From an uncultured Fibrobacteraceae bacterium (GTDB taxonomy: Bacteria; Krumholzibacteriota; Krumholzibacteriia; LZORAL124-64-63), in contig CAZWYF010000007.1 in assembly GCA_964637835.1 (NCBI GenBank), positions 7,486 through 71,485 of the forward strand: DNA of 64,000 bases. Direction: 5' to 3'. The notes below the pieces were generated by a model. It was given only the letters and a program-made list of their open reading frames with translations. It was not told the DNA's origin and did not search any database. Both the position numbers and the translations under genes were made by a program. The first letter of the stretch is position 1. Each line of letters begins with the position of its first letter. Of this stretch, positions 1,684 through 36,658 are shown in pieces.

Positions 1684-2044
1684 GGCCGCGGCGCAGGAGC
1701 GCCGCCTGCTCGACCGCCTCCTCGGCCTCTACGCCGAGCAGGAACGGCTCTACGCCGAGGTCCTCGACCTCTCCCGGCGACAGCGGGACCTGGTACGCCA
1801 GGGCGCGCCGCTGAGCGAGGTCCGCGCGGTCCTGGAGCAGAAGAAGTCCCGCCTGGAGACCATCGGGCGCCTCGACCTGACCGAGGCCGCGTACAAGGAC
1901 CAGTGGCGAGCGGGCCGGCGGGGCTGGAGCGTCGGGGGCCGCACGCGACTGCACGGAGCCCTCGAGGCCGTGGGACGCGTGATCGAGGACATCCTCGCCT
2001 GTGAACAGGAGAACGACCGTGAACTGCTGCAGCAGTCTCGCTGA
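1655..2044 (+). CDS. Small coiled-coil protein, possibly a FlgN-like flagellar export chaperone
   Basis: 129 aa. Helical pattern LLDRLLGLYAEQERLYAEVLDLSRRQRDLV resembles the FlgN family. Overlaps the upstream gene by 29 nt. Sits directly upstream of the flagellar two-component system. Confidence 0.35.
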   Translation: MAPLLSTSAEAAAQERRLLDRLLGLYAEQERLYAEVLDLSRRQRDLVRQGAPLSEVRAVLEQKKSRLETIGRLDLTEAAYKDQWRAGRRGWSVGGRTRLHGALEAVGRVIEDILACEQENDRELLQQSR

Positions 2045-2045
2045 G

Positions 2046-2771
2046 ATGGCCGCGGAGGCCGGCGCCGGGGCCCCGGAGGTCCAGCGGCCAGCGGGCGGAT
2101 CGCGCGACCGGCGCGGCCGCCTGCTTCGCGGCTACCTGCACAAGAGCAGCAACAGCCTCTGCGGCATCAAGGGCTACGCCAGCCTCATCGCCGGCGGTCC
2201 CCAGAGCGGCGGCCGCAGCACCGCCTGGGCCCGGAAGATCATCGCCGAGGTGGAGCGCCTGGAGGACGTCTACCGCTCGGTGCGGGAGATGGCGTTCCCC
2301 GTGCCGGCCTCCGGCCTGGAGGCTGTCGATCCCGGCCACGTGGTGGCCGACGCCTGCGACACGGCGAGCGCCCGCCACGCCAACCTCCGGATCGGCCCCA
2401 TCCCGCCGCTGGGTGGTCGGCTGCTCCTGCCGGCCGGGGACCTGATGCAGGTGATCGCCGCCCTGCTGGACAACGCGGCGGAGAGCCGTCCGGCGACGGT
2501 GGCCGTCACGCTCGCCGCCGGCCTGGATGGCGCCGGCCGCCGCCTGCTGACCATCACCGACGACGGCCCGGGCATGCCGCGGGAGCTGCTGACCCAGGCC
2601 ATCGATCCGTTCGTCACCACGCGGGAGGGCCATCTCGGCATCGGCCTGAGCCGCGTGGAGACCATCATGGACATGCATGGACTGGGCTGGGGGCTGCGGA
2701 GCGTGCCGGAGGCCGGCACGGCCGTGACCCTCGAGATCGCGACGGTCCGGACCACCGGCTCGCTGCGCTGA
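2046..2771 (+). CDS. Sensor histidine kinase (DHp+CA only, no sensor/TM domain), FlrB/FleS-like
   Basis: H-box YLHKSSNSLCGIKGYASLI. HATPase_c motifs DNAAES (N-box), TDDGPGMP (G1) and GLGLS (G2). Start ATG 2046 chosen because it abuts the upstream stop. Confidence 0.7.
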   Translation: MAAEAGAGAPEVQRPAGGSRDRRGRLLRGYLHKSSNSLCGIKGYASLIAGGPQSGGRSTAWARKIIAEVERLEDVYRSVREMAFPVPASGLEAVDPGHVVADACDTASARHANLRIGPIPPLGGRLLLPAGDLMQVIAALLDNAAESRPATVAVTLAAGLDGAGRRLLTITDDGPGMPRELLTQAIDPFVTTREGHLGIGLSRVETIMDMHGLGWGLRSVPEAGTAVTLEIATVRTTGSLR

Positions 2772-2787
2772 ACGGAAAGGGAACCCG

Positions 2788-4158
2788 ATGGCCAAGAAAC
2801 CCCGCATCCTGGTGGTCGACGACGAGCACACCATGCGCGACTTCCTCACCGCCTCGCTCACCGGCCGGTACGACGTCCGCACCGCCACCGACGGCATCCA
2901 GGCCCTCGAACTGCTGCGCGAGGCGCCAGCCGACCTGGTGCTCTCGGACGTGCGCATGCCGGGCGGTGACGGCCTGACGTTGCTGGCCTCCATCCAGAGC
3001 GACCTCGCCGATCCGCCGCTGGTGGTCATGATGACGGCCTTCGGCACCATCAAGGAGGCGGTGGAGGCCACCAAGCGCGGGGCCGTGGACTATCTCACCA
3101 AGCCCTTCGGACTCGATCAGCTCGAGCACACGCTCCGGCGGGCCTTCGAGCTGCGGGAACTGCGCGACGAGAACCGCACCCTGCGCACCACCCTCAAGAC
3201 CCAGCGCAAGCAGCACGGGCTGCTGGGCACCAGCGTCGCCATGGCCGAACTCCGGGACAAGATCGAGATGATCGCCGACTCCCGTGGCACCGTCCTGCTG
3301 CAGGGCGAGAGCGGCACCGGCAAGGAGGTGGCCGCCCGCGCCATCCACAACGCCGGCGGCCGCCGTGATGGCCCGTTCATCCGCCTGAACTGCGCGGCCA
3401 TTCCCGAGACGCTGCTCGAGGGTGAGCTGTTCGGGCACGAGCGGGGCGCGTTCACCGGCGCGGTCCAGGCGCGGCCCGGCAAGTTCGAGCTGGCCGATGG
3501 CGGCACGCTGCTGCTGGACGAGATCAGCGAGATGCCCCTGAGCATGCAGGCCAAGCTGCTGCGCGTGATCCAGGAGCGCGAGTTCATGCGACTGGGCGCC
3601 CGCGAGTCCACGCGCTGCGACGTGCGCATCGTCGCCACCAGCAACCGCAACCTGAAGGAGGAGATCCGCGCCGGGAACTTCCGCGAGGACCTCTTCTTCC
3701 GCCTCAACGTGATCCCGCTGCATCTGGTGCCACTGCGCCATCGCAAGGAGGACGTGCCCCTGCTGGCGAGCCACTTCGTGCGCGCGTTCTGCGCCGAGAA
3801 CGGGAAGCCGCTGCTGAACCTCACCGACACCGCCCTGGAAGCCCTCCTGGCCCATGACTGGCCGGGCAACGTCCGCCAGCTGCAGAACGTCATCGAGCGG
3901 GCCGTGATCCTCTGCCCGCACCAGGAGATCGACCTCGCGCTGCTCGACCTGCACGACGAGATCAATCACGACGAACCGGCCGCCGAGCTCGCTGGCGACC
4001 TGACCATCCGGGAGATGGAGCAGGAACTGATCTTGCGGAAACTCTCACGGACGGGCGGAAACCGGACCCAGGCTGCCACGGAACTGGGCATCAGTGTCCG
4101 GACTCTGCGCAACAAGCTGCATCTGTACCAGCAGCAGGGCGTCGCCATCCCGGGGTAG
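2788..4158 (+). CDS. Sigma-54-dependent response regulator (REC-AAA+-HTH), FlrC/FleR-type flagellar regulator
   Basis: REC domain ILVVDDEHTMRD...[21 protein letters not shown] Walker A, GAFTGA motif, WPGNVRQL, C-terminal HTH. Immediately upstream of flgB. Confidence 0.9.
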   Translation: MAKKPRILVVDDEHTMRDFLTASLTGRYDVRTATDGIQALELLREAPADLVLSDVRMPGGDGLTLLASIQSDLADPPLVVMMTAFGTIKEAVEATKRGAVDYLTKPFGLDQLEHTLRRAFELRELRDENRTLRTTLKTQRKQHGLLGTSVAMAELRDKIEMIADSRGTVLLQGESGTGKEVAARAIHNAGGRRDGPFIRLNCAAIPETLLEGELFGHERGAFTGAVQARPGKFELADGGTLLLDEISEMPLSMQAKLLRVIQEREFMRLGARESTRCDVRIVATSNRNLKEEIRAGNFREDLFFRLNVIPLHLVPLRHRKEDVPLLASHFVRAFCAENGKPLLNLTDTALEALLAHDWPGNVRQLQNVIERAVILCPHQEIDLALLDLHDEINHDEPAAELAGDLTIREMEQELILRKLSRTGGNRTQAATELGISVRTLRNKLHLYQQQGVAIPG

Positions 4159-22900: not shown

Positions 22901-25018
22901 TTGGATCAGGACAGGGTCATCAGCAGAGACCTCGTGCTGGCCAACAGCAACATCATGAGCGCCGTGGCCGTGCTGGTCATTCTCGCGCTCATGGTGATCC
23001 CGGTCTCACCGGTCATGCTGGACGTCCTGATGACCTTCAGCATCGCCCTGGCCGTGGTCGTCATGCTGGTGTCGCTCTACCTGAAGGAACCGCTGCAGTT
23101 CAGCACCTTCCCCTCGCTGCTGCTGGTGATGACGCTGTTCCGGCTGGCGCTGAACGTGGCCAGCACGCGCCTGATCCTCAGCCGGGGCGAGGCGGGGCAG
23201 GTGGTGCAGAGCTTCGGCGACTTCGTCATCGGCGGGAACTACGTCATCGGGGTGATCGTGTTCGTGATCCTGGTGATCGTGAACTTCCTGGTGATCACCA
23301 AGGGCTCCACGCGCATCGCCGAGGTCTCCGCGCGGTTCACGCTGGACGCCATGCCCGGCAAGCAGATGGCCATCGATGCGGATCTCAATGCCGGGATGAT
23401 CACCGAGATCCAGGCCCGGCAGCGTCGCGAGAAGATCTCCAACGAGGCCGAGTTCTTCGGCGCCATGGACGGCGCCAGCAAGTTCGTGCGCGGCGACGCC
23501 ATCGCCGGCATCATCATCACCCTGATCAACATCATCGGCGGCTTCATCATCGGCATGGCCCAGCTGGGCATGACCGGCACCGAGGCCCTGGGCCGCTTCA
23601 CGCTGCTGACCGTGGGCGACGGCCTGGTCAGTCAGGTGCCGGCCCTGCTGGTCTCCACCGCCGCCGGCCTCGTGGTCACCCGTTCGAGCAGCGACCTCAA
23701 CTTCGGCGAGGCCCTCACCCTGCAGATCTTCCGGCAGGGCAAGGCGCTGGACATCGCCGCCGTGGCGCTGGTGGTCCTGGGGCTGGTCCCGGGCATGCCC
23801 ACGTTCCCGTTCGTCATCCTGGGCGGCGGCACCTTCGCCGCCGGCCGCATTCTCGGCAAGCGCGTGGCCAACGCCGAGCGCCAGGACGCCGAGGCGGAGG
23901 CTGCGGCCACCGCCGAGGCCGACGCGCCACCGGCGGGCGATGGGCCGCGCGGGGAGGACCTCTTCGTGCTCGACCGCATGGAACTGGAGATCGGCTACGG
24001 ACTGATCGGCCTGGTGGACGAGTCCCGCGGCGGCGATCTGCTGCAACGCATCGGCAACATCCGCCGCCAGATCTCCTCGGAACTGGGAATCTTCATCCAC
24101 CCGATCCGCGTCCGCGACAACCTGCAGCTACCGGCTGGCGGGTACGTGATCAAGCTCAAGGGCGTGCCCATCGCCAGCGCCGAGCTGCGCGCCGGGCAGT
24201 TGCTGGCCATGAGCACGCAACCCGACTGCGGCGACCTCGCCGGCGTGCCCACCACCGAGCCGGCCTTCAACCTGCCGGCCGTGTGGATCGACGCCGACCG
24301 CCGCGCCGAGGCCGAGGCCGAGGGCTACACGGTGGTCGAGGCCCCGGCCGTCCTCGCCACCCACCTCTCGGAGCTGATCCGCGCCCATGCCGACGAGCTC
24401 CTCAGCCGCCAGGACATCCGCGACATGCTCGAGTCGGTCCGCGAGTTCGCTCCAGCGCTGATCGAGGAGCTGATCCCGGACAAGGTGCCGGTCAACACGC
24501 TCCACAACGTGCTACGCAACCTGCTGCACGAGCGGATCCCGGTCCGCGACATCGTCTCCATCCTCGAGACCATCGCCAACCACATGGGTCCCGGGGCCGG
24601 GAGCGACCTCTTGACCGGCAAGGTCCGCGAGGCCCTGCACCGCACCATCAGCCAGCTGTACGCCGATCCCGATGGTGCCCTGCACGTGGTGAGCCTGCAT
24701 CCGGAGACGGAGCAGACCATCCTGGAGGCCTCGCGCCAGAGCGAGCAGTCCGGCCAGGTGGTGCTCTCGCCGCGCTTCACCCAGGAGTTCCTCGGGCGCC
24801 TGGACCAGGCCCTGCGCGGCGCCTATGGCGCCGGCGCACCCCCGGTGCTGCTGGTGCCCACGCCCGTCCGCTTCTTCGTCAAGCGACTCGTCGAAACCAC
24901 GTATCCCAACCTGGCCGTGATGGGCTACACGGAGGTCGCCTCCTCCGTGCGAATCCAGTCGGCCGGAACGGTGGTCACCCATGGTCACAACCAGCACGAG
25001 CAACAGGCCGTCGGCTGA
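22901..25018 (+). CDS. flhA: Flagellar biosynthesis protein FlhA
   Basis: 705 aa. TTG start with RBS aggaga. FHIPEP motif SARFTLDAMPGKQMAIDADL. Cytoplasmic C-domain. Confidence 0.9.
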   Translation: MDQDRVISRDLVLANSNIMSAVAVLVILALMVIPVSPVMLDVLMTFSIALAVVVMLVSLYLKEPLQFSTFPSLLLVMTLFRLALNVASTRLILSRGEAGQVVQSFGDFVIGGNYVIGVIVFVILVIVNFLVITKGSTRIAEVSARFTLDAMPGKQMAIDADLNAGMITEIQARQRREKISNEAEFFGAMDGASKFVRGDAIAGIIITLINIIGGFIIGMAQLGMTGTEALGRFTLLTVGDGLVSQVPALLVSTAAGLVVTRSSSDLNFGEALTLQIFRQGKALDIAAVALVVLGLVPGMPTFPFVILGGGTFAAGRILGKRVANAERQDAEAEAAATAEADAPPAGDGPRGEDLFVLDRMELEIGYGLIGLVDESRGGDLLQRIGNIRRQISSELGIFIHPIRVRDNLQLPAGGYVIKLKGVPIASAELRAGQLLAMSTQPDCGDLAGVPTTEPAFNLPAVWIDADRRAEAEAEGYTVVEAPAVLATHLSELIRAHADELLSRQDIRDMLESVREFAPALIEELIPDKVPVNTLHNVLRNLLHERIPVRDIVSILETIANHMGPGAGSDLLTGKVREALHRTISQLYADPDGALHVVSLHPETEQTILEASRQSEQSGQVVLSPRFTQEFLGRLDQALRGAYGAGAPPVLLVPTPVRFFVKRLVETTYPNLAVMGYTEVASSVRIQSAGTVVTHGHNQHEQQAVG

Positions 25019-26132
25019 GTCCGCGGCGGTGGTGGAAGCGCCCACGCTGAAGGAGGCGCTCAAGCAGGTCCGGGCGCGGTACGGTGAGGACGCGCGCGTG
25101 ATCCGCAGCCGCACCCTCACGCGTCGTCAGCCCGGCGGCCTCGGCCAGCAGAAGATGGTGGAGGTGCTGGTCGAGCCCAGCAGCGGTCGCGGGCGCGGAT
25201 CGGGCGCGGCGGCCGGGTCGGGAAGCGGGGGCGCGCCCGCGGCCGGCTCGCGCCTGGCGCGGGAGATCGCCGCCGAGGTGCAGCGCATCGAGGACCTCGT
25301 CCGGCAGATCGCCGTGGGCGAGGCCGGGCAGGATCACCGGCGCCGGGCCGTGCAGGCCAATCCCGTCAGCGAGGCCCTGGTGGCCGCCGGAGCGGATCCC
25401 GGCGTGGTCGTCCGGCTGGGCGAGCGATGCCAGGCGGAGACGGGCGCCGCGCCCGGCGACCGGACCGCACTGCTGGAATACCTCGCCCGCAGCCTGCCCA
25501 CCGGTCGCGGGACCTGGCAGGACCTGGGTGGAACCCACGTCTTCCTGGGCGGACCCGGCTGCGGGCGCACCGAGCTGCTGCTGCAATCGGCGGCACGCCT
25601 GGTCGCGGCCGGGCGGTCGGTGCTGGTGCTGTCGGTGCTGCCGCGGCATGCCGGGGAGATCCGCCGCCTGCAGGCCGAGGCTGCGCAGCAGGGCTACGAC
25701 GCGGCGGTGATCCAGAAGCCGCGCCAGTTCGCGGCGGCCGCCGAGCACCTCGAGCGCTACGACGTGGTGCTCATCGACGCGCCAGCCTTCGGGCGTATCG
25801 GCGATGCCGGCGCCGAGGCCCTGCGGCGCGAGATGGTCCAGAACCCGGCCCTGCACCGGCATCTGGTCTTCCCGCTCGATCGCGACCTGCGCGACTGCCA
25901 GGAGCTGTTCGCCGCCGCGCGGGCCTGGAACTGCGACTGGGTGGCGCTCAGCCGGCTGGACCAGTGTGCCCGCCGCGGCAAGATCCTCGACCTGGTGGAC
26001 CGCCTGCCGTTGCCCGTCTCCCTGACCGGCGACGCGAACTGGCCCGATGGCGAGCCGCGCATCGCCAGCCCGGGGCAGTTGACCGAGTTGATCCTCGGCG
26101 CCGCCGCCCAGCGCGACGCGGCCAACGCCTAG
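24981..26132 (+). CDS. flhF: Flagellar biosynthesis protein FlhF homologue (SRP-type GTPase fold with degenerate G1/G3/G4 motifs)
   Basis: 383 aa. Position after flhA. SRP54-type fold: LGGPGCGRTELLL (Lys to Arg in P-loop), VLIDAPAFGRIGD (DTAG degenerate), SRLDQC (TKLD degenerate). Confidence 0.7.
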   Translation: MVTTSTSNRPSAESAAVVEAPTLKEALKQVRARYGEDARVIRSRTLTRRQPGGLGQQKMVEVLVEPSSGRGRGSGAAAGSGSGGAPAAGSRLAREIAAEVQRIEDLVRQIAVGEAGQDHRRRAVQANPVSEALVAAGADPGVVVRLGERCQAETGAAPGDRTALLEYLARSLPTGRGTWQDLGGTHVFLGGPGCGRTELLLQSAARLVAAGRSVLVLSVLPRHAGEIRRLQAEAAQQGYDAAVIQKPRQFAAAAEHLERYDVVLIDAPAFGRIGDAGAEALRREMVQNPALHRHLVFPLDRDLRDCQELFAAARAWNCDWVALSRLDQCARRGKILDLVDRLPLPVSLTGDANWPDGEPRIASPGQLTELILGAAAQRDAANA

Positions 26133-26145
26133 GCAGGAGGGAACC

Positions 26146-26538
26146 ATGCGACGGCTCGTCCAGACCATCGCCCTGGGAGCGGCCCTGCTGGCCGTCGGCA
26201 GCGGCGTCTGGCGCGATTACGACACGTTGATGGTGCTGCGACGGGCGATCACGGCCTACCTCGCCGCCTACCTCGTCGGCGGGGTGCTGGTGCTGGTGGC
26301 CCGCGCGGCCCTCGGCGCCGTGGCCGATCCGCCGCCGCCGCCGCCGGAACCGGAGGCGGACCGGCGCAAGCGGCGCTCCAGGCGCCAGTCACGAGGACCG
26401 GCGAGGAACGCGCCGGATCCCGATCCCGCGGACGCCACCGGAGCCCCGGCGACCGCCACGGAGCCGCTGGCGTCGGCGCCGGAGACCGCGACCCCCGACG
26501 CGCCATCGCCGGAGCCTGCCCCGGCCCCGTCGCGGTGA
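26146..26538 (+). CDS. Hypothetical small membrane protein (two TM helices plus Pro/Ala-rich tail)
   Basis: 130 aa. IALGAALLAVGSGVW and AYLAAYLVGGVLVLVARAAL hydrophobic segments. Good GC3 codon bias. Confidence 0.45.
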   Translation: MRRLVQTIALGAALLAVGSGVWRDYDTLMVLRRAITAYLAAYLVGGVLVLVARAALGAVADPPPPPPEPEADRRKRRSRRQSRGPARNAPDPDPADATGAPATATEPLASAPETATPDAPSPEPAPAPSR

Positions 26539-26545
26539 ACCGGGA

Positions 26546-26561
26546 TGGCACGGAATCTGCA
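26546..26561 (+). promoter_or_regulatory. Sigma-54 (-24/-12) promoter TGGCACggaatcTGCA upstream of fliA
   Basis: GG-N10-GC spacing exact. A single deviation (C for T at -14) from TGGCAC-N5-TTGCA. Lies 37 nt upstream of the fliA ATG in the intergenic gap. Confidence 0.55.
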
Positions 26562-26597
26562 GTCAGCGGGTAGCACGATACCCGAAAGGCGGAGGCC

Positions 26598-27557
26598 ATG
26601 AGCGACAAGCCCGTGATCGCCCATCAGGACATCTGGCAGCGTTACGACGCCGAGGGCTGCCAGCGAGCTCGCCAGGAACTGGTCGAGAAGTACGCGCGCA
26701 TCGTCAAGTACGTGGCCGGCCGCATGGCCATCGGCTTGCCGCACTACGTGGAGTTCAACGACCTGGTCTCGGCCGGCCTGCTCGGCCTGATCCAGGCGAT
26801 CGACAACTTCGACCACACGCGCGGCATCAAGTTCGAGACGTACGCCATCCCGCGCATCCGTGGCGCCATCCTCGATGAGCTCCGCAGTCAGGACTGGTTC
26901 CCGCGCAGCTTGCGGCGCAAGGCCAAGCAGCTCGAGGAGGCCTACGCCACCCTCGAGGCCCGCCTCGGCCGGCCGGCCACCGACAAGGAGGTGGCCGCCG
27001 AGCTCCAGGTGGAGGTCTCCGAGCTCGACGGCATCGTGGGCGAGGTGGCCGTGGCCACGATCATGTCCCTGGATGCCGATGCCTCGAGCGACGAGAGCGA
27101 GCAGTCCACCAGTCTGGGCGATTACATCGCCGACCCCAAGGCCGAGGATCTGGAGAAGGTGATCGCCGCCCAGGAGATGCGGCAGATCATCGCCCAGCGC
27201 ATGGCCGAGCTGCCAGAGAAGGAGCAGCTGGTCCTGGTGCTCTACTACTACGAGGAGCTGACGCTCAAGGAGATCGGCGAGATCCTCGACGTCACCGAGA
27301 GCCGCGTCTGCCAGATCCACACCAAGGCCATCATGCGCCTCAAGGGGAAGATCCAGCGGCACGAGGGACGGCAGTCCATCGGCCGGCTCACCGAGCAGAT
27401 CCGCCGCCAGCAGCCTCCGGCCGCCGCGGCGGACCCGGCGGCCGAGCCGGTGGCCAGCCCCGCAGCCCTGGAATCGGTGAACGTGACCGCCTGTCTGCCA
27501 CTGGCGCCCCTGGCGACGGCCCTGCTGGCAGCGACCCTCGGCTTGCCGGGGGCCTAG
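26598..27557 (+). CDS. fliA: Flagellar sigma factor FliA (sigma-28/SigD) with ~60-aa C-terminal extension
   Basis: Region 2 (DLVSAGLLGLIQAIDNFD), region 3, region 4.2 HTH (LKEIGEILDVTESRVCQIHTKAIMRLK). 319 aa, versus ~240-260 typical. Confidence 0.85.
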   Translation: MSDKPVIAHQDIWQRYDAEGCQRARQELVEKYARIVKYVAGRMAIGLPHYVEFNDLVSAGLLGLIQAIDNFDHTRGIKFETYAIPRIRGAILDELRSQDWFPRSLRRKAKQLEEAYATLEARLGRPATDKEVAAELQVEVSELDGIVGEVAVATIMSLDADASSDESEQSTSLGDYIADPKAEDLEKVIAAQEMRQIIAQRMAELPEKEQLVLVLYYYEELTLKEIGEILDVTESRVCQIHTKAIMRLKGKIQRHEGRQSIGRLTEQIRRQQPPAAAADPAAEPVASPAALESVNVTACLPLAPLATALLAATLGLPGA

Positions 27558-27572
27558 CGATCGGAGCGCGCC

Positions 27573-27905
27573 GTGGCCGGCGACGGGGTGTCCCTGCAGA
27601 CCAACATCGCCCAGCTCGGCACCGTGGCCAAGACCCAGGCCCGAGGTCAGCAGGGTCACGCCGTGGCGCCAGGGCAGAAGCCCGGCCAGGCCGACGACGT
27701 CCAGCCGCTCCAGAAGGTGAAGGAAGGCGAGAAGGCGGACCCCGAGGGCCTCGAGCCGGAGCAGCGGCGCGAACGTGATCGCCGGCGGGGTGATCGGGAT
27801 CCCCAGGAAGCCGCCGCCGACACCGGGACGGACGGCGAGGACGCCGAGGACGAGGACGACGACGAGGCGCCGTGGCTCGGCGGACACATCGACATCAAGG
27901 CCTGA
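27573..27905 (+). CDS. Hypothetical acidic, low-complexity protein (110 aa)
   Basis: Strong GC3 codon bias supports coding. DEDDDEAPWLGGHIDIKA C-terminus. No recognisable family. Confidence 0.4.
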   Translation: MAGDGVSLQTNIAQLGTVAKTQARGQQGHAVAPGQKPGQADDVQPLQKVKEGEKADPEGLEPEQRRERDRRRGDRDPQEAAADTGTDGEDAEDEDDDEAPWLGGHIDIKA

Positions 27906-27925
27906 CCGACCAGGAGGATCTGCCC

Positions 27926-28378
27926 GTGGAACTGACCAGCCTGCTCGCCGCCGCCCGCGCCCAGGGCCCCGTCTTCTGGGCCGCGACCGGCGCCATCGCT
28001 CTCGGCCTGACGCTCCTGCTGGTGGCCGTCCTGCACCGCTTGCCCCGGCCCCGGCGCCGTCGGCGGACCAGGACGGAGACCGGGCCGCCGGCTTCGAGCC
28101 CGGCGGCGAGCGCCCCCGAAGTCGCGGCCGCGGCGCAGGCCCGCACGGCCTATCAGGACGCTCCGGCCGCGCCCCGGGGCGTCCTCGCCAGCCCGGGACT
28201 GGATCACGACCCGGCCGAGCGCTCCCTGGCCCTGCTCCTGCGCCGTCTGCAGAGCGCCGGCGACCGCCTGGAGGAACTGGCCGGCAGCGTTCCGGCCGCG
28301 GATCTCGCCGCCCCGCAATCGGGACTCAAGGACGCTGCCCCGGACGTCGAATATGTCTTCAGGGCGTGCGGTCCGTAA
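27926..28378 (+). CDS. Hypothetical membrane-anchored protein (150 aa)
   Basis: GTG start 8 nt after a perfect AGGAGG. TM segment VFWAATGAIALGLTLLLVAVL followed by a poly-Arg stretch. Codon usage coding-like. Confidence 0.45.
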   Translation: MELTSLLAAARAQGPVFWAATGAIALGLTLLLVAVLHRLPRPRRRRRTRTETGPPASSPAASAPEVAAAAQARTAYQDAPAAPRGVLASPGLDHDPAERSLALLLRRLQSAGDRLEELAGSVPAADLAAPQSGLKDAAPDVEYVFRACGP

Positions 28379-28417: not shown

Positions 28418-29299
28418 ATGCTGGACACCGAGGCCACGTCGCGGCCCGAGACCGACGACCCTCAGCTCAAGCAGCTCATCATGGCCATCCGGGACCTGCC
28501 GGCGATGCCTCACGTCGCCAGCAAGGTCCTCGAGCTGTCGTCCGATCCGGACACCTCCGCCGCGCTCCTGCAGCAGGTCATCGCCGACGACCAGGCCATG
28601 ACCGCCCGCATCCTGAAGATCGCCAACTCCGCCATGTACGCCTGCAGCCGGCGCATCAAGACGCTCTCCGAGGCCATCGTGATGCTCGGCTTCAACAGCA
28701 TCCGCTCGCTGGTGGTCACGAGCGCCGCCCGCAACCTCTATGGCGGGAACAACGCGCGCATGGGACTCAAGGAGCGGCTGCTCTGGGAGCACAGCATCGG
28801 CTGCGCCTTCGCCTGCCGCGTGCTGGCCACCGGACGCCATCCCGCCCTGGCGGAGGAAGCCTTCCTGGCCGGCCTGATGCACGACATCGGCAAGCTGGTG
28901 CTCAACCTCCAGCTACCGGACCAGTTCGAGGAGATCGTCCAGATCGTCTACAACGAGAACCGGGAGTTCCATCACACCGAACAGGAGCTCCTGGGCTTCG
29001 ACCATGCCCGGGTGGGCGCCCTCCTGGTGAGCAAGTGGAAGCTCTCGCCGCTGCTCGAGGAGGTCATCGGCCTGCACCACGACGAGGACAGCCTCGCACC
29101 CGACCGGCCGCTGCTCCTGTACCTCGACCTGGCCAACCGCCTCTGTCAGAAGTACGGCATCGGCTTCCAGGAGTTGCCGGACCTGGACCTCGCGAACTGC
29201 CGGAGCGCCCGCATCCTCGGACTCGACGCCGCCGCCATCGACGACGCGGCGCAACGCCTGCAACAGACCCTGGAGACCGAGATGGAGGTCTTCGTCTAG
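28418..29299 (+). CDS. HDOD-domain signalling protein
   Basis: PAMPHVASKVLEL...ARILKIANSAMY...LMHDIGKLVL...GFDHARVGALL are HDOD (HD-related output domain) motifs. Confidence 0.8.
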   Translation: MLDTEATSRPETDDPQLKQLIMAIRDLPAMPHVASKVLELSSDPDTSAALLQQVIADDQAMTARILKIANSAMYACSRRIKTLSEAIVMLGFNSIRSLVVTSAARNLYGGNNARMGLKERLLWEHSIGCAFACRVLATGRHPALAEEAFLAGLMHDIGKLVLNLQLPDQFEEIVQIVYNENREFHHTEQELLGFDHARVGALLVSKWKLSPLLEEVIGLHHDEDSLAPDRPLLLYLDLANRLCQKYGIGFQELPDLDLANCRSARILGLDAAAIDDAAQRLQQTLETEMEVFV

Positions 29300-29309
29300 G
29301 AGGACCGCG

Positions 29310-30179
29310 ATGAGCACCCAGGATCGCCACCCATCGCTCGCGGAGCTGCGCGATTCGATCCAGGAATTGCCCACCATCCCGGAGACGCTCAGCCGGATCC
29401 TCAGCCTGCTCGAGGACCCCAACAGCGGCGCGCGCGATCTGGCCGAGGTGATCCGCGGCGACGCGCCCCTGGCGGCCAAGATCCTCCGGCTCGCCAACTC
29501 GCCGCTGTATCGCAAGCAGCGGGCCATCGGTACGATCCAGGAGTGCGTGTCCGTGCTCGGCTACCGCACCGTCCGGCAGGTGGCCCTCTGCGTCTCGGTC
29601 ATCTCCACCCTCGGCCAGGAGTGCGAGGCCCGCGGCGCCCGCATCGACTATCGCGATCTCTGGCGCCACGGCGTGGCCGTCGGCGCGGTGGCGCAGGCGC
29701 TCGCCCGGCAGGCCGGCACCTGCGACGCGGAGCTGGCCTTCACCTCCGGCCTGCTGCACGACCTCGGCAAGCTCGTCCTCGGCCTCGAGTTCCCCACCAC
29801 CTATGGCGAGCTGGTCGCCCAGCGCTGCCGCGAGGGCCGGCATCTGGTGGAGGTGGAGCGACGGGAACTGGGCTTCGATCACGCCCGGGCCGGCGAGGAA
29901 CTGGCCTCGGCCTGGAGCTTCCCCGTGGAGCTGGTCGAGCCCATCGGCGCTCACCACGAGGCCGAGCCGCCCAGCACCCTGGTCGCGGTGGTGGCCCTGG
30001 CCGACTACCTGGGCAACCTGCTGGACCCCTCGCAGGGCGACCTGGGCTTCGACGCGATGCTCGTGGACACGGCTCCGCTCTACCGGGCGGCCGGCCTGCA
30101 GCGCGAGGACGTGGAGGCCCGGCTCGATCAGCTGCGGGAGGCCATCCGCGAGGCGAGCCCGCTGCGGAATCTCGACTGA
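29310..30179 (+). CDS. HDOD-domain signalling protein (paralogue of the preceding gene)
   Basis: PTIPETLSRILSLL...AKILRLANSPLY...LLHDLGKLVL...GFDHARAGEELA. Same architecture as the upstream paralogue. Confidence 0.8.
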   Translation: MSTQDRHPSLAELRDSIQELPTIPETLSRILSLLEDPNSGARDLAEVIRGDAPLAAKILRLANSPLYRKQRAIGTIQECVSVLGYRTVRQVALCVSVISTLGQECEARGARIDYRDLWRHGVAVGAVAQALARQAGTCDAELAFTSGLLHDLGKLVLGLEFPTTYGELVAQRCREGRHLVEVERRELGFDHARAGEELASAWSFPVELVEPIGAHHEAEPPSTLVAVVALADYLGNLLDPSQGDLGFDAMLVDTAPLYRAAGLQREDVEARLDQLREAIREASPLRNLD

Positions 30180-30267
30180 ATGACCGCAGAAAACCCCTGG
30201 CCCCGTCCAGCAACCTTGCTATGATCCCCTGCGGGCGGCCCGTCGGAACGCCCGATCGAGGAGATCC

Positions 30268-31785
30268 ATGCCTGCACGCGACCTGATCCTGCTCAGCCGC
30301 CAGGCGTCGCTCTACGCGGCGGTGGCGGCCTGGAAGCTCGCCGACACCGAGATCTACGCCTTCGAGGACGCCGCAGCCGCGGTCTCCCGCGCCGCCACGG
30401 GTGCGGCGGCGGTGGTGGTCTTCGACACGCGCGGATTCCCCGCCGTGCGCGCCACCCTCAATCGCCTGCTGGCCGTGGGCGGCGACACGGACGTGGTGGT
30501 GCTCGGCCCCGGCGAGGAGCTGGGCGGCGACGCCCTGCATCCCGAGAGCGGCACCCTCCGTTTCCTGCCGCCGGACACGCCGACCGCCGAGTTGCAGTCG
30601 GTGGTGGAGCTCCTGCTGCGGATGCGCCGGGTCCGCCGCGAGGGCGGCATCGTGGGCCGGTCGCGGGCCGTGGGGCAGATGATCGCCCTGATCGCCCAGG
30701 CCGCGCCCATCGACGTCAACGTCCTGATCACCGGCGAGAGCGGCACGGGCAAGGAGCTGGTGGCCCGGGGCATCCATCGCATCTCCCGGCGACGGGACGG
30801 TCCATTCCTGGGCCTCAACTGCGGCGCCCTCAGCGAGGGGGTGCTCGAGAGCGAGCTCTTCGGCCATGTCCGCGGCGCCTTCACCGGCGCGGTCGCGGCC
30901 CATGACGGGGTCTTCAAGCGCGCCGACGGTGGCACCCTCTTCCTCGACGAGGTGGGCGAGATGCCGCTGGGCATGCAGACCCGCTTCTTGCGCGCCCTGG
31001 AGACCGGCGAGTTCACGCCCGTCGGCGGCAAGGGGATCCTCCGCAGCGACACCCGGCTGGTGGCCGCCACCAACCGCGACCTCGTCCGGGAGGTGGAGGC
31101 GGGCCGCTTCCGCCAGGATCTCTACTACCGCCTGCGGGTGATCGTCATCGAGACGCCGCCGCTGCGCGAGCGCCAGGAGGACATCCCCATCCTGGCCGAT
31201 CACTTCCTGGAGCAGGAGAACCGTGAACACGGGCTGGCGGTCCGTGGTTTCAGCCGCCACGCCAAGCAGCAGCTGCGCGCCTATGCGTGGCCCGGCAACA
31301 TCCGGGAGCTGCGCAACGTGATCCGCGCGGCGGTGGTCATGAAGCAACGCGGCCTGATCGAGGTGGACGATCTCCAGCTCGACCGCGGCGGTCGCGGCGA
31401 GGCGAGCTCGGCGTTCCTGCCCATGATCGTCGACCAGGGAGCGGCCCACGAGCGGCTGGACCCCGGCGTGCTGGCGTCCACGCTGCTGGAGCTGCGTCAG
31501 GACATCAAGGAGATCAAGGCTCGCCTGGAGGCCCTCACCGGCGCGCCCGGGGCCGGCGGCGGGCTGGGGGGGGCGATCCCGGCCGAGGGGCGGGTGGTGG
31601 AGACCCTCCTGCACGAGCAGGGCCTGGAGCCTCCCGAGGGCGGCGGCGACCTGCAGAGCGCCGAGAAGGCCCTCATCGCCGCGGCGCTGGAGGCCACCGG
31701 CGGCAACCGCCGCCGGGCGGCCCAGCGGCTGGGCATCAGCGAGCGGACCCTGTACCGCAAGCTCAAGCATTACGAACTCGGATGA
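30268..31785 (+). CDS. Sigma-54-dependent transcriptional activator with degenerate (FleQ-like) receiver domain, AAA+ domain, ~100-aa linker and Fis-type HTH
   Basis: [26 protein letters not shown]-terminal [18 protein letters not shown]. The N-terminal domain lacks the acidic DD pocket (DLILLSRQ). Confidence 0.8.
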
Positions 31786-31837: not shown

Positions 31838-31893
31838 CAGGAAGCAGAACTGGCTTGTCACACGACACCTTACCCCTGGTTAGCGAGGCAGAC

Positions 31894-32958
31894 ATGCAGG
31901 AGAACCGGTTCTGGCGGGTTCGCCGGGGCGCGAGTCTGTGCGCCCTGGTGTTGCTGTGCATGGGCGCGGACACCGCCCCGGCGGCCAAGTTCGCCGGCGC
32001 CTTCATGGAGAACGGCGGTGGCGCGCGGGCCCTGGGCATGGGCGGAGCGTTCACCGCCGTGGCCGATGACCCGTCCGCCACGTTCTGGAATCCGGCCGGC
32101 CTGGCCCGGACGCGCTCCCGGGAGCTGCTGGTCATGCACTCCGAGCGCTTCGGCGACCTGGTCGATCGCGACTTCGCCTCCTTCGTCACGCCCACGGACT
32201 GGTCGCTGCTCGGCGGCGAGGGTGGTGGTTTCGGCATCTCGCTGATCCGCCTGGGCGTCGACGACATCCCGTTCACCGAACACCTGGTGGACCAGCTCGA
32301 CATCGACGGCGACGGCCAGGTCGACGACGACGAGGTGGTCGGCATCCTCGAACCCGAGTTCCAGGACCAGATCCGCTTCAAGAGCGATCAGGAGTTCGCG
32401 CTCATGTTCTCTTACGGGGAGCGGCGGGGCCGCTGGCTGCTGGGCGGAAACCTGAAATTCATCCGGCAGAGCGTGGGCGACTACTCCAGCCTCGGCATCG
32501 GGGCCGATATCGGCGCCATCCGCCCGGCGATCTGGCGCAACCTGGACTTCGGGCTCAAGCTCCAGGACGTCACCACGACCTACCTCAGCTGGAGCACCGG
32601 CCACAACGAGGTGGTCTATCCGGCGGTGGTCCCGGGGTTCGCCTATCGCTGGCACCTGCCGGCCGCCCGCATGCAGCTCCTTCTGGCCTCGAGCTTCGAG
32701 ACCCGTTTCGAGAATCGCGGCGAGGCCGATCAGTGGTCCACCGGCGCCATCTCGGTCAACAGCCACTGGGGCCTGGAGGTGGGCTTCAGCCAGAAGGTCT
32801 TCGTCCGCGCGGGCCTCGACAGCGGCTTCGATACCGAGGACATCACCGCCGGCGCCGGTTTGTACCTCCACCCCCTGACCGTCGACTACGCCTATGCCGG
32901 CGACACCCTCGACATCGACGAGGTGACCCACCGCATCTCCCTCTCCGTGAGGTTCTAG
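31894..32958 (+). CDS. Outer-membrane beta-barrel protein (FadL/PorV-like family)
   Basis: Signal peptide. GMGGAFTAVADDPSATFWNPAGLA N-terminal motif. Alternating beta-strand pattern. C-terminal aromatic residue (VRF). Confidence 0.5.
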   Translation: MQENRFWRVRRGASLCALVLLCMGADTAPAAKFAGAFMENGGGARALGMGGAFTAVADDPSATFWNPAGLARTRSRELLVMHSERFGDLVDRDFASFVTPTDWSLLGGEGGGFGISLIRLGVDDIPFTEHLVDQLDIDGDGQVDDDEVVGILEPEFQDQIRFKSDQEFALMFSYGERRGRWLLGGNLKFIRQSVGDYSSLGIGADIGAIRPAIWRNLDFGLKLQDVTTTYLSWSTGHNEVVYPAVVPGFAYRWHLPAARMQLLLASSFETRFENRGEADQWSTGAISVNSHWGLEVGFSQKVFVRAGLDSGFDTEDITAGAGLYLHPLTVDYAYAGDTLDIDEVTHRISLSVRF

Positions 32959-35064: not shown

Positions 35065-35093
35065 TTGGCTTCGGCCTGATGATATGTGATAAT
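35065..35093 (+). promoter_or_regulatory. Strong sigma-70 promoter TTGGCT-N17-(TGt)GATAAT in an AT-rich island, driving the GGDEF gene; divergent from mltD
   Basis: Extended -10-like TGTGATAAT and a good -35. The only AT-rich stretch in the region. Confidence 0.45.
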
Positions 35094-35137
35094 TGGTCAG
35101 ATTCCTTCAACTAGAGGCGGGCCGACAGAGCGTGTTC

Positions 35138-36658
35138 ATGAACGACGAGGGCAGGATCCGGGAGCTGCTGGCACGGCTCCCGCGCGAACGGTTGTCCCCC
35201 GAGGCGCGGGCTCTGGTCGAGAGCGCCGCTCCGGGGCGGCCGGCGGCCCAGCGCATGGCCCTGAGGGCGGCGGTGGGCGATCTGCTGCGTGGGGGGCACC
35301 TGGTGCGCCTGGCCGCCGATGGCGCCTCCGGCGTCCGGGGGCCGCTGTTCCTGCTCCGTGGGTCCAGCCAGGTGCTCGACCTCTCCGCCCTCGGTGGCGA
35401 GGATGTCGACCTCGGCGGCAATGGGAAGGGCGAGGGAGCCCGGGATGATGGCCCGCGGGCGGCGGAGGCCCCCGACGACGCGGATGGCCGGCACCGGACG
35501 GGGGCTCCGGATCCGCCGACGGCGCGCGATGCCCGCGGCGGCGACCTGGATGCGGCCGTCCGCTGCGAGGCGGCCGACGGCGGCGGAACGGTGGCGGCGC
35601 CACCGTCGACGGACGGGGTCGGCGGCGTGCTCGAGGCCATGGAGCGGGCGCAGGACCTCGCGGTGGGCGACCCCCGGACCGAGGAACCGGGCGTGATGGT
35701 CAGCCGCATCCTCGCGCTGCTGGGCGGCTACGTGCCGTCCGTCCATCTCCGTGCCCAGTTGCTCGGCGACCCGCAGGACATGGCTGCCGACGCCGAATCC
35801 GACGTGCTGCCCGCCATCCCGCCGGACCAGGCGCCGTTCTGGTTGCGGTGCCGCGCCCCGGGGCAGGCCGTCTGGATTCCCGACCCGGCGGAGCTGCCGG
35901 TCCCCTTGCAGCGGCAACTCGGGGGCCTGCCGGCCCCCGTCACGGCGGTGGTCCCGCTCTGGTCGCCTGCCGGGGACGGTGGCGAGCTGGGGCTGCTCTA
36001 CGTCTCGGCGACGCATGAGGAACGGGACGGGCTGATGCGGCTGGCGCAGCGGCTATCGGCCTTCGTCACCCGGCGCTGGCGCTGCCAGCACGATGTCAAC
36101 CGGCGGGTCCTCACCGACAGCCTCACCGGGATCCGTAACCGGGCGTTCTTCGACACGCAGTTCCCGCTCGAACTGGAGCGGGCCCGGCGCGGAGATTTCC
36201 CGCTGACGCTGGTGATCGGCGATCTCGACCACTTCAAGGCCATCAACGACACCTACCACCACCAGTGCGGCGACCGGGTGCTCCAGGGCGTGGCGCGCCT
36301 GTTGCAGGAAGCGTTGCGCCGCATCGACTACGTCTGCCGCATCGGCGGCGAGGAATTCGCGCTCATCCTGCCCTACACCTCGCAGGAGGAGGCCGCGGAG
36401 GTCCTCGGACGCCTCGTGGGCCAACCCATGCGCGTCCCGCTCGCCGCCGAGTGGGGCACGGGCGCCGTCTCGGTGACCATGTCCTACGGCGCGGTCACCT
36501 TCCCCGATGCCGGCAGCAGTGCGGGGGAACTCCACCGCAAGGCCGATAGCATGCTTTACCGGGCGAAGGAACTGGGACGGAACCGATGCTGCATCTGGGT
36601 GGGGCCCGGCCGTCACCAGGAACTGCTGCCCTCGCGGTCGCGCGCAGCCGATCACTGA
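35138..36658 (+). CDS. Diguanylate cyclase (N-terminal GAF-like/unknown sensory region plus GGDEF domain with intact GGEEF and RxxD I-site)
   Basis: LTGIRNRAFFD...GDLDHFKAINDTYHHQCGD...RRIDYVCRIGGEEF...YRAKELGRNRC. Confidence 0.8.
   Translation: MNDEGRIRELLARLPRERLSPEARALVESAAPGRPAAQRMALRAAVGDLLRGGHLVRLAADGASGVRGPLFLLRGSSQVLDLSALGGEDVDLGGNGKGEGARDDGPRAAEAPDDADGRHRTGAPDPPTARDARGGDLDAAVRCEAADGGGTVAAPPSTDGVGGVLEAMERAQDLAVGDPRTEEPGVMVSRILALLGGYVPSVHLRAQLLGDPQDMAADAESDVLPAIPPDQAPFWLRCRAPGQAVWIPDPAELPVPLQRQLGGLPAPVTAVVPLWSPAGDGGELGLLYVSATHEERDGLMRLAQRLSAFVTRRWRCQHDVNRRVLTDSLTGIRNRAFFDTQFPLELERARRGDFPLTLVIGDLDHFKAINDTYHHQCGDRVLQGVARLLQEALRRIDYVCRIGGEEFALILPYTSQEEAAEVLGRLVGQPMRVPLAAEWGTGAVSVTMSYGAVTFPDAGSSAGELHRKADSMLYRAKELGRNRCCIWVGPGRHQELLPSRSRAADH

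Follow-up and report, generated by a model that had tools for sequence, protein, structure and literature searches.

To our knowledge, neither a function nor a mechanism has been assigned to the HDOD domain since its naming, although several HDOD mutants are affected in motility. GsmR of X. campestris is involved in flagellum synthesis, mutants of Cj0248 in C. jejuni show reduced migration, and loss of PFL_0554 or PFL_5871 in P. protegens leads to more swimming. PSPTO_4229 of P. syringae, a stand-alone HDOD protein of 273 amino acids (aa), has a fitness profile that clusters with chemotaxis genes, and its overexpression stops swimming with no alteration of Congo-red staining, a phenotype linked to cyclic di-GMP (c-di-GMP). 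Here we describe two HDOD genes, HDOD1 and HDOD2, and the gene that follows them, EBP2, which codes for a sigma-54 activator (enhancer-binding protein, EBP), in a stretch of 64,000 nucleotides (nt) of contig CAZWYF010000007.1 (GenBank assembly GCA_964637835.1), the whole of which is called the window below. The window has a G+C content of ~71%, and its close relatives in public data carry the label Candidatus Krumholzibacteriota, a phylum for which we know of no cultured representative. Our preferred explanation, which we hold at roughly an even chance of being right, is that these genes form two adjacent, separately controlled units, with the HDOD pair belonging to the late flagellar class of genes and EBP2 being a separate orphan activator.

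The HDOD proteins named above, together with SadB of Pseudomonas, which is an adaptor in AmrZ proteolysis, share with HDOD1 and HDOD2 the PF08668 family, a genetic tie to flagellar motility and an undefined biochemistry, and PSPTO_4229 also shares the stand-alone format of ~270-300 aa. However, there are several differences. The present pair consists of two diverged tandem paralogues, it lies within a flagellar cluster and it has a predicted sigma-28 promoter. In addition, its host belongs to an uncultured phylum of the Fibrobacteres-Chlorobi-Bacteroidetes (FCB) group, whereas the known motility HDODs are proteobacterial. The classic HDOD architecture is a receiver-HDOD fusion, as in GsmR and DVU0330. 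In general c-di-GMP activity has been shown for no HDOD domain; DVU0330, whose HD residues are intact, has weak activity on bis(p-nitrophenyl) phosphate and none on c-di-GMP. SadB of P. aeruginosa does not bind c-di-GMP, and SadB of P. fluorescens was reported to bind c-di-GMP.

Among activators, the closest described systems are FleQ of Pseudomonas and FlrA of Vibrio, which like EBP2 are sigma-54 activators with a receiver-like N-terminal domain that is not phosphorylatable (for EBP2 as judged from its sequence and model), a Fis-type DNA-binding domain and an association with flagellar genes. The AAA+ core of EBP2 is similar to the FleQ and FlrA structures at E ~1e-70. Two-tier flagellar cascades, with an orphan master activator and a two-component activator, are well known from Pseudomonas (FleQ/FleR) and Vibrio (FlrA/FlrC). 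The flagellar sigma-54 activator FlbD of Caulobacter has a degenerate receiver, and FliX, a small protein whose gene lies among the flagellar genes, controls it in trans.

Predicted order of transcription at the end of the flagellar cluster

Related loci came from three sources. Fetching via the EBP in species-representative genomes was dominated by generic activators and recovered five true relatives; further loci were obtained by exact-protein look-ups of EBP homologues (55-61% identity) and by a metagenome scan with a 6-sequence alignment of the EBP2 N-terminal domain. Gene content of the loci was read by tblastn. Towards DNA that precedes the window, a look-up via EBP1 reached no more than a contig of 5.8 kb. 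Between ~2 and 30 kb of the window nearly all genes lie on the + strand and are members of the flagellar cluster, in the order kinase-like gene, a second sigma-54 activator gene (EBP1), rod, MS-ring and hook genes, flhB, flhA, flhF, a 130-aa gene (u130), fliA, the small genes u110 and u168, HDOD1 and HDOD2. These are followed by a gap of 88 nt, EBP2, a PorV-family gene, a lytic transglycosylase (SLT) gene on the opposite strand, a GGDEF cyclase gene, comEC, purC and housekeeping genes. A sequence-only reading of this DNA had placed two adjacent HDOD proteins of ~290 aa, with an EBP after 88 bp, immediately after a flagellar cluster and near a GGDEF cyclase. The gene content agrees with this placement, the HDOD open reading frames are exactly as that reading gave them (293 and 289 aa, both passing the PF08668 profile check), and the gap (30180-30267) leads into a gene with confirmed sigma-54 activator domains.

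Of 22 loci, 21 have the core TGGCA(C/T)-N5-(C/G)TGC ~36-40 nt ahead of the fliA start codon, with the window copy (26546-26560) reading TGGCAC-N5-CTGC. A weight matrix made from these sites gives the window fliA site a score of 27.1 and the runner-up in the 64 kb, which lies inside a gene, a score of 13.3; the fliA site is the only strong sigma-54-type promoter in the window. Given this conserved site, fliA is predicted to need sigma-54 and an activator. Note that fliA of Vibrio also sits behind a sigma-54 promoter. In every flagellated locus, moreover, no sigma-54-type promoter other than that of fliA lies within 10 kb of EBP2, which makes EBP2 a reasonable candidate for its activator, with EBP1 being an equally conventional candidate. 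No convincing sigma-54 sites were found near the PorV, SLT or GGDEF genes, the region before the PorV gene included, or in two related loci without flagellar genes (L083 and L004, described below).

A second conserved signal, a sigma-28-type promoter-like element, lies before HDOD1 and reads TCAAG-N15-GTCGAATA in the window. In 22 related loci the element is CTAAAG-N15-GTCGA(A/T)TA, with an invariant 15-nt spacing, 60-160 nt before HDOD1. The established sigma-28 consensus is TAAA-N15-GCCGATAA, which the element resembles in its TAAAG-N15-GTCGAATA form, and locus L117 even carries CCGATCAA. As the element is embedded in the 3' end of u168, its conservation can be compared with codon usage. The Leu codon of the element is CTA in 19 of 21 distinct sequences, as against ~1% of Leu codons in these genomes; the Val codon is GTC in 21 of 21 (~37% expected); and the Glu/Asp codon ends in A or T in 21 of 21 (~41% expected). 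The five codons of the 15-nt spacer between the -35 and -10 parts are fully diverged. Related sequences are non-independent observations, but judging from the divergence of the spacers the remaining synonymous sites are saturated. This fixation of synonymous sites around a diverged spacer suggests selection on the DNA itself. In locus L005, where the HDOD genes are absent, the CTAAAG part is lost (CGCCTGGCG) and GTCGAAT is kept. The embedded promoter, visible only through the fixation of rare codons, would be an example of a regulatory signal hidden in coding sequence.

In the explanation that we prefer, the tail of the flagellar cluster would constitute the first unit. A sigma-54 activator would turn on the sigma-54-dependent promoter that drives fliA, u110 and u168, FliA (sigma-28) would in turn recognize the promoter embedded in u168, and HDOD1 and HDOD2 would be made from it and would adjust motility during flagellum completion. 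This outlines a putative sigma-54 to sigma-28 flagellar cascade in Krumholzibacteriota. It also gives the HDOD pair a testable placement, namely late flagellar class and metal-dependent, with two clean proteins for biochemistry. A precedent for sigma-28-driven signalling genes is provided by pdeH and ycgR of E. coli, which code for a phosphodiesterase and a c-di-GMP effector and are expressed from sigma-28 promoters with the late (class 3) flagellar genes, although their protein families differ from that of HDOD1 and HDOD2. The sequence-only reading had proposed a second-messenger input into flagellar transcription; the sequence evidence instead favours the HDODs as outputs of the sigma-54/sigma-28 cascade, downstream of the activator, and the GGDEF neighbour as part of general synteny.

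A probable control region before EBP2

HDOD1 and HDOD2 are separated by 9-14 nt across loci, and HDOD2 and EBP2 by 88-168 nt. In the window the latter gap contains a promoter-like element, CTGGCC-N17-TATGAT, with a TG two bases upstream (extended -10 type). The TATnnT of its -10-like part can be aligned among relatives, even with the HDOD-less L083. A palindrome, TGNCA-N3/4-TGNCA, is fused to this TATnnT in 30 of 39 distinct loci, for the most part 16-36 nt ahead of the EBP2 start. In the 498 kb of these loci, TATnnT and palindrome occur together 35 times, essentially always at this place. The palindrome has been lost in the subclade of the window (window, L001, L002 and L085) and is absent from 30180-30267 of the window; this subclade keeps CTGGCC-N17-TATGAT and the upstream TG. 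The palindrome resembles an operator, through which EBP2 might regulate its own gene. Because the element is conserved even in the HDOD-less L083, EBP2 probably has a control region of its own, with an operator being probable. The sequence-only reading had the HDOD and activator genes fused into one operon. This does not fit with the promoter/operator-like element of 30 of 39 loci (L083 included) or with the predicted sigma-28-type promoter of the HDOD genes. The second unit would thus be EBP2 alone, a phylum-restricted protein with its own promoter/operator, a pseudo-receiver, an intact ATPase with a GAFTGA loop and a DNA-binding domain. EBP2 is retained at this position even in relatives without the flagellar block.

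In loci L081-L118 and L083 the palindrome takes the form TG(T/C/A)CA-N3/4-TG(A/G/T)CA, 16-100 nt upstream of the EBP2 start (L083:7955-7967, L082:7955-7967). The element before EBP2 was also considered as a sigma-54 site and rejected, since its GG/GC spacing does not fit.

HDOD1 and HDOD2 keep a complete di-metal site

Both HDOD matches span the full PF08668 profile, for which the cut-off is 22.9 bits. The two proteins are 35% identical over 230 residues (E 9e-44), indicating old paralogues and no recent duplication. HDOD1 orthologues are 65-90% identical to HDOD1 and only ~30-34% to HDOD2, and the two orthologue groups are separate, so the duplication is older than the sampled diversity. Mean column identity is 68% for HDOD2 (36 orthologues) and 80% for HDOD1 (29 orthologues), which is unusually high conservation across a phylum. 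A homologue search with HDOD1 was filled by orthologues of 67-90% identity and is therefore uninformative on other phyla.

The best solved relative of HDOD1 is PDB 3HC1 from Geobacter sulfurreducens (E 1.5e-32, residues 18-254 aligned), a structural-genomics entry with no function assigned; other solved HDOD structures that matched are 3M1T (3.8e-30), 9QZK, 3I7A, 3P3Q, 3LJX, 3MEM and 1VQR. The 3HC1 pocket binds two iron ions via five His and one Asp (PMC12075610). All six metal ligands are shared by HDOD1 (H124, H155, D156, H196, H220, H221; invariant in 29 orthologues) and by HDOD2 (H119, H150, D151, H191, H215, H216; invariant in 36 orthologues), whereas SadB and GsmR are without most of them. 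As the full five-His/one-Asp site is kept as in the Geobacter structure, the most likely role of HDOD1 and HDOD2 is to tune motility as sensors or weak hydrolases that depend on metal, and the phenotypes of other HDOD mutants likewise suggest a motility role for the pair. HDOD1 also has an Arg-Arg/Lys pair, R78-R79, in the conserved ANSxxY...R segment, which may or may not correspond to the R84-R85 that PSPTO_4229 needs for its function. The locus extends two known kinds of protein, motility-linked HDOD proteins and pseudo-receiver sigma-54 activators, here with a regulatory placement.

EBP2 is an activator with a lineage-restricted pseudo-receiver

EBP2 (505 aa, 30268-31785, + strand) matches Sigma54_activat (1e-64), AAA_lid_14 and HTH_8, and has a Walker A motif (GESGTGKE) at 156, GAFTGA at 203 and a Walker B motif (LFLDE) at 224. 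The lid ends at residue 371 and HTH_8 starts at 465. This leaves a linker of ~93 aa, close to the ~100 aa claimed for it before, in which a conserved helix (399-425) is flanked by two low-confidence stretches. For residues 1-126 a search at E<=10 gave no Pfam match, be it to Response_reg, to the FleQ domain PF06490 or to any other family. An AlphaFold2 model of this N-terminal domain made with 28 orthologues (pLDDT 85.6) has a beta-alpha receiver fold without helix 4, and the closest solved folds found by Foldseek are ordinary receiver domains (TM 0.6-0.7, identity 11-19%). At the pocket S10-R11 replaces the acidic pair, G80 the Thr/Ser and L100 the Lys, so that of the five residues only the Asp (D53) is kept; all orthologues carry D53, W22, D73 and D75. 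Among 1.84 billion representative proteins, only 15 matched this domain at E<=1e-3, mostly of fragment length (84-200 aa). With so few matches and a degenerate pocket, the sequence identifies this domain as a lineage-restricted pseudo-receiver, and sequence and model together indicate that it cannot be phosphorylated in the normal way. The earlier claim that the receiver lacks the phospho-acceptor pocket thus stands for the residues around the acceptor but not for the acceptor Asp itself, and the receiver remains non-canonical after alignment. Two loci that had seemed to hold distant full-length EBP2 orthologues, L017 (Deltaproteobacteria) and L022 (Planctomycetota), were rejected, as both have a canonical receiver (DDD...D...T...KP) at the N-terminus and lie among unrelated housekeeping genes.

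The activator had also been called FleQ-like, and this label was not upheld, other than loosely in that the receiver is predicted to be non-phosphorylatable. There is no match to the FleQ domain, and the FleQ receiver is not in the top 50 fold matches of the EBP2 N-terminal domain. Specifically, the c-di-GMP contacts of FleQ, which we take to be R144, R185, N186, E330 and R334 in P. aeruginosa numbering, correspond in an alignment to PDB 8P53 to G126, R167, G168, H312 and Q316 of EBP2. Four of the five are absent, and the one shared contact Arg (R167) is generic among activators. The window also has no FleN/FlhG, the deviant Walker A motif KGGxGK[ST] of this MinD-type ATPase being present in no frame of its whole length. 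EBP2 further differs from FleQ and FlrA in that it keeps the central Asp and that its N-terminal domain is almost without relatives beyond its own family. With regard to FlbD, EBP2 matches the FlbD model in the AAA+ region only (286.6 bits, residues 123-412, against a cut-off of 750).

Conservation of gene order around EBP2

The order flhA-flhF-small-fliA-small-small-HDOD1-HDOD2-EBP2-PorV-SLT-GGDEF-ComEC-PurC is present in ~38 of 42 loci that were sampled via the EBP and reach far enough upstream, and in 4 of 4 loci sampled via HDOD1 homologues. The proposed co-occurrence of HDOD-HDOD-EBP is therefore observed in these loci, but it is not specific. Synteny extends through ComEC and PurC, so that gene order in this phylum is kept whatever the genes do. 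In 75 unrelated activator loci from other phyla, no HDOD gene was found at a distance of up to 10 kb.

Three loci have EBP2 without the HDOD genes, which argues against the joint presence expected of a single operon. L083, which lies on a 3.8 Mb contig and has an EBP of 56% identity, carries EBP2-PorV-SLT-GGDEF-ComEC-PurC in full; the genes upstream of its EBP2 are dxs, NAD kinase, recN and polysaccharide genes, and flagellar and HDOD genes are absent from the locus. In the EBP2 N-terminal domain L083 hardly differs from L082, a flagellated relative. In L004 (EBP 44% identical) the flagellar and HDOD genes are absent at the locus and a kinase gene and a canonical receiver-activator gene lie directly upstream of EBP2; this upstream pair is 39% identical to EBP1 of the window, which leaves orthology undecided. 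The flagellar block and the HDOD genes are therefore jointly missing in L083 and L004, with EBP2-PorV-SLT-GGDEF-ComEC-PurC retained. In L005, fliA, u110 and u168 are present, EBP2 begins 98 nt after u168, and both HDOD genes are cleanly absent. Retention of EBP2 without HDODs in L083, L004 and L005 indicates that EBP2 is the fixed element and that the HDOD pair is not tied to it.

Additional observations on these loci concern labels and a tRNA-like sequence. L003 and L005 have Krumholzibacteriota-type synteny and EBP identities of 57-58%, yet are labelled Fibrobacteraceae or Fibrobacter sp., probably through binning or taxonomy label errors. Among HDOD1 homologues, one labelled Gemmatimonadales and another labelled Lysobacterales probably reflect label errors too. 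Positions 3640-3730 of L083, a few kb upstream of EBP2 in this locus without a flagellar block, resemble a tRNA gene (GCGCCCGTAGCTCAGCTGGATAGAGCG...).

Alternative explanations

Several points weigh against the two-unit explanation. All of the promoters are predictions from sequence. The sigma-28-type motif is drawn from the sites before HDOD1 and from no flagellin gene, and the element is the only instance in the window; the -35 part in the window, TCAAG, is weaker than the CTAAAG of relatives; and since the element lies in a coding region, the peptide motif LK-x5-VEY could explain part of its conservation. No intrinsic terminators are predicted anywhere in 26-36 kb, and with none between HDOD2 and EBP2 read-through is possible. 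A comparison of the DNA ahead of the fliA promoter in 17 loci, which looked for inverted repeats and 7-mers in common, revealed no enhancer-like site and nothing conserved beyond coding sequence, so neither activator is tied directly to this promoter. Finally, L005 retains flagellar genes without the HDOD pair at the locus, indicating that the pair is not strictly required or has moved, and the absences in L083, L004 and L005 are absences at the locus itself.

One alternative, which we regard as unlikely, is that the HDODs are feedback partners of EBP2. Late HDOD1 and HDOD2 made by sigma-28 would bind the EBP2 pseudo-receiver and switch its ATPase, thereby closing a loop from flagellar completion to fliA transcription, in the role that FleN has for FleQ, FliX for FlbD or VemR for Xanthomonas FleQ. 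FlbD-FliX of Caulobacter is the best analogy for such a model, although HDOD proteins are unrelated to FliX; no search for a FliX homologue was made. An input of this type would suit a receiver that is predicted not to be phosphorylated normally and so needs another input, and a window that encodes no FlhG/FleN-type ATPase. It is also consistent with VemR, which is encoded beside fleQ and binds FleQ, with SadB being an HDOD adaptor for a transcription factor, and with the receiver-HDOD fusions GsmR and DVU0330, which hint at contacts between these domains. The HDOD-EBP2 adjacency in ~90% of loci, in both sampling directions, points the same way, but carries little weight given that synteny reaches far beyond the trio. 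What stands more directly against feedback is that EBP2 and its conserved N-terminal residues are unchanged where the HDODs are absent (L083, L005, L004), and that the 0 of 75 count among unrelated activator loci means that the pairing has not recurred independently. A more specific form, in which HDOD1 and HDOD2 are a sigma-28-dependent, metal- or redox-sensing heterodimer that docks on the pseudo-receiver and sets output at the fliA promoter, is in our judgement rather doubtful. If true, it would be a phylum-level flagellar checkpoint built from parts used for this purpose nowhere else, and the first defined molecular role of a metal-competent HDOD domain.

A further alternative with a small chance of being correct is that EBP2 has no connection with flagella. 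In this case EBP1 would fire the fliA promoter, EBP2 would control genes elsewhere, and its adjacency to the HDOD pair would be a by-product of where the flagellar block sits. EBP1 and the kinase-like gene do lie at the start of the cluster, like FlgS/FlgR and FleS/FleR, EBP2 is retained with PorV-SLT-GGDEF in loci that lack flagellar genes, and no enhancer site links EBP2 to the fliA promoter. Against this, EBP2 of every flagellated locus has no sigma-54-type promoter but that of fliA within 10 kb, no convincing site of this type was found near the PorV, SLT and GGDEF genes or in the aflagellate loci, and the two-tier cascades described above show that an orphan master and a two-component activator can serve one flagellar system.

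We consider it very improbable that HDOD1, HDOD2 and a FleQ-like activator form a single operon which feeds c-di-GMP, perhaps from the nearby GGDEF protein, into sigma-54 flagellar transcription, for although gene order is conserved, no terminator is predicted between HDOD2 and the activator, the GGDEF protein is syntenic with intact GGEEF and I-site, and P. fluorescens SadB is reported to bind c-di-GMP, the HDOD pair and the activator have separate conserved promoter-like elements, the FleQ domain and four of five c-di-GMP contacts are missing from EBP2, P. aeruginosa SadB and DVU0330 respectively lack c-di-GMP binding and hydrolysis, and the GGDEF gene shows just as much synteny with ComEC and PurC and is kept in loci without flagellar genes.

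Neighbouring genes and minor observations

The coordinates of the genes, domains and predicted elements are collected in Table 1.

Table 1. Features of the window discussed in the text, with the basis of each assignment
Feature	Position	Strand	Basis
Kinase-like gene + EBP1	2001..4158	+	head of cluster; rival activator of fliA promoter
Kinase-like gene	2001-2771	+	HATPase_c match; head of flagellar cluster
EBP1, canonical receiver-containing sigma-54 activator	2788-4158	+	Response_reg 3.8e-27, Sigma54_activat 7.3e-69, HTH_8
flhA	22901-25018		flagellar cluster
Predicted sigma-54-type promoter (core TGGCACGGAATCTGC)	26545..26562	+	36 nt upstream of fliA start codon
fliA (sigma-28, FliA/WhiG family)	26598..27557	+	NCBIfam TIGR02479 FliA_WhiG 273.5 bits (cut-off 189.6); Pfam Sigma70 r2/r3/r4
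u110, conserved small protein	27573..27905	+	open reading frame with high G+C at third codon positions; orthologues after fliA in related loci; Pfam: none at E<=10
u168, conserved small protein, hydrophobic N-terminus	27872..28378	+	orthologues in related loci; Pfam: none; predicted promoter embedded in 3' end
Sigma-28-type promoter-like element (TCAAG-N15-GTCGAATA)	28326..28353	+	64 nt upstream of HDOD1, inside last codons of u168
HDOD1, stand-alone HDOD, 293 aa	28418..29299	+	Pfam HDOD PF08668 1.6e-59, 201.1 bits; HD 2.2e-08
HDOD2, paralogue, 289 aa	29310..30179	+	Pfam HDOD 4.5e-56, 189.9 bits; HD 8.9e-11; HDIG domain
EBP2 promoter-like element (CTGGCC-N17-TATGAT, TG two bases upstream)	30197..30225	+	read from sequence
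EBP2 pseudo-receiver (aa 1-126)	30268..30645	+	AlphaFold2 pLDDT 85.6; Foldseek receiver matches; no Pfam match
EBP2 AAA+ sigma-54 interaction domain and lid (aa 128-371)	30649..31380	+	PF00158 1e-64; PF25601 4.8e-26
EBP2 linker (aa 372-460): disordered, conserved helix 399-425, disordered Gly-rich	31381..31647	+	conservation profile and full-length model
EBP2 Fis-type helix-turn-helix	31648..31785	+	Pfam HTH_8 1.7e-14; model: three helices in 461-502
PorV/PorQ-family outer-membrane protein gene	31855..32958	+	NCBIfam PorV_fam 93.2 bits (cut-off 90)
GGDEF diguanylate cyclase	35093..36658	+	Pfam GGDEF 1.8e-42; GGEEF motif; RxxD inhibition site RRID five residues before GGEEF

No credible Pfam family, FlgM included, was matched at E<=10 by the small proteins u130, u110 and u168. 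As u110 and u168 follow fliA in nearly all flagellated relatives, one of them might act as a FlgM-like anti-sigma factor. The flhF-fliA interval (24981-26598), the usual place of FlhG/FleN, instead holds the 130-aa gene, which codes for a proline-rich protein with a hydrophobic N-terminus and no family match that is 66-101 aa long in relatives. The kinase region that precedes EBP1 (589-2771) is called as three overlapping open reading frames (364, 129 and 256 aa), of which only the last matched HATPase_c, with HisKA not detected in the region. The same three calls are present on the independent contig L087, so that an assembly error is improbable.

The GGDEF gene lies 3.3 kb downstream of EBP2 and is syntenic in relatives. 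Its GGEEF and RRID motifs suggest that the protein is probably an active, product-inhibited cyclase, and its N-terminal ~330 residues have no family match. A sigma-54-like string, TGGCGCGCCTGTTGC, lies inside this gene at 36291-36305, ~300 nt before comEC, and is in the same place in 12 related loci. As a sigma-54 site this TGGCnCG...TGCA string was rejected, since it codes for the conserved peptide VARLLQ and is probably a coding by-product. The most constant neighbour of EBP2 is the PorV/PorQ-family gene (type IX secretion-like), which begins 30-200 nt behind EBP2 and follows it in all related loci that reach past EBP2, whether or not flagellar genes lie upstream.

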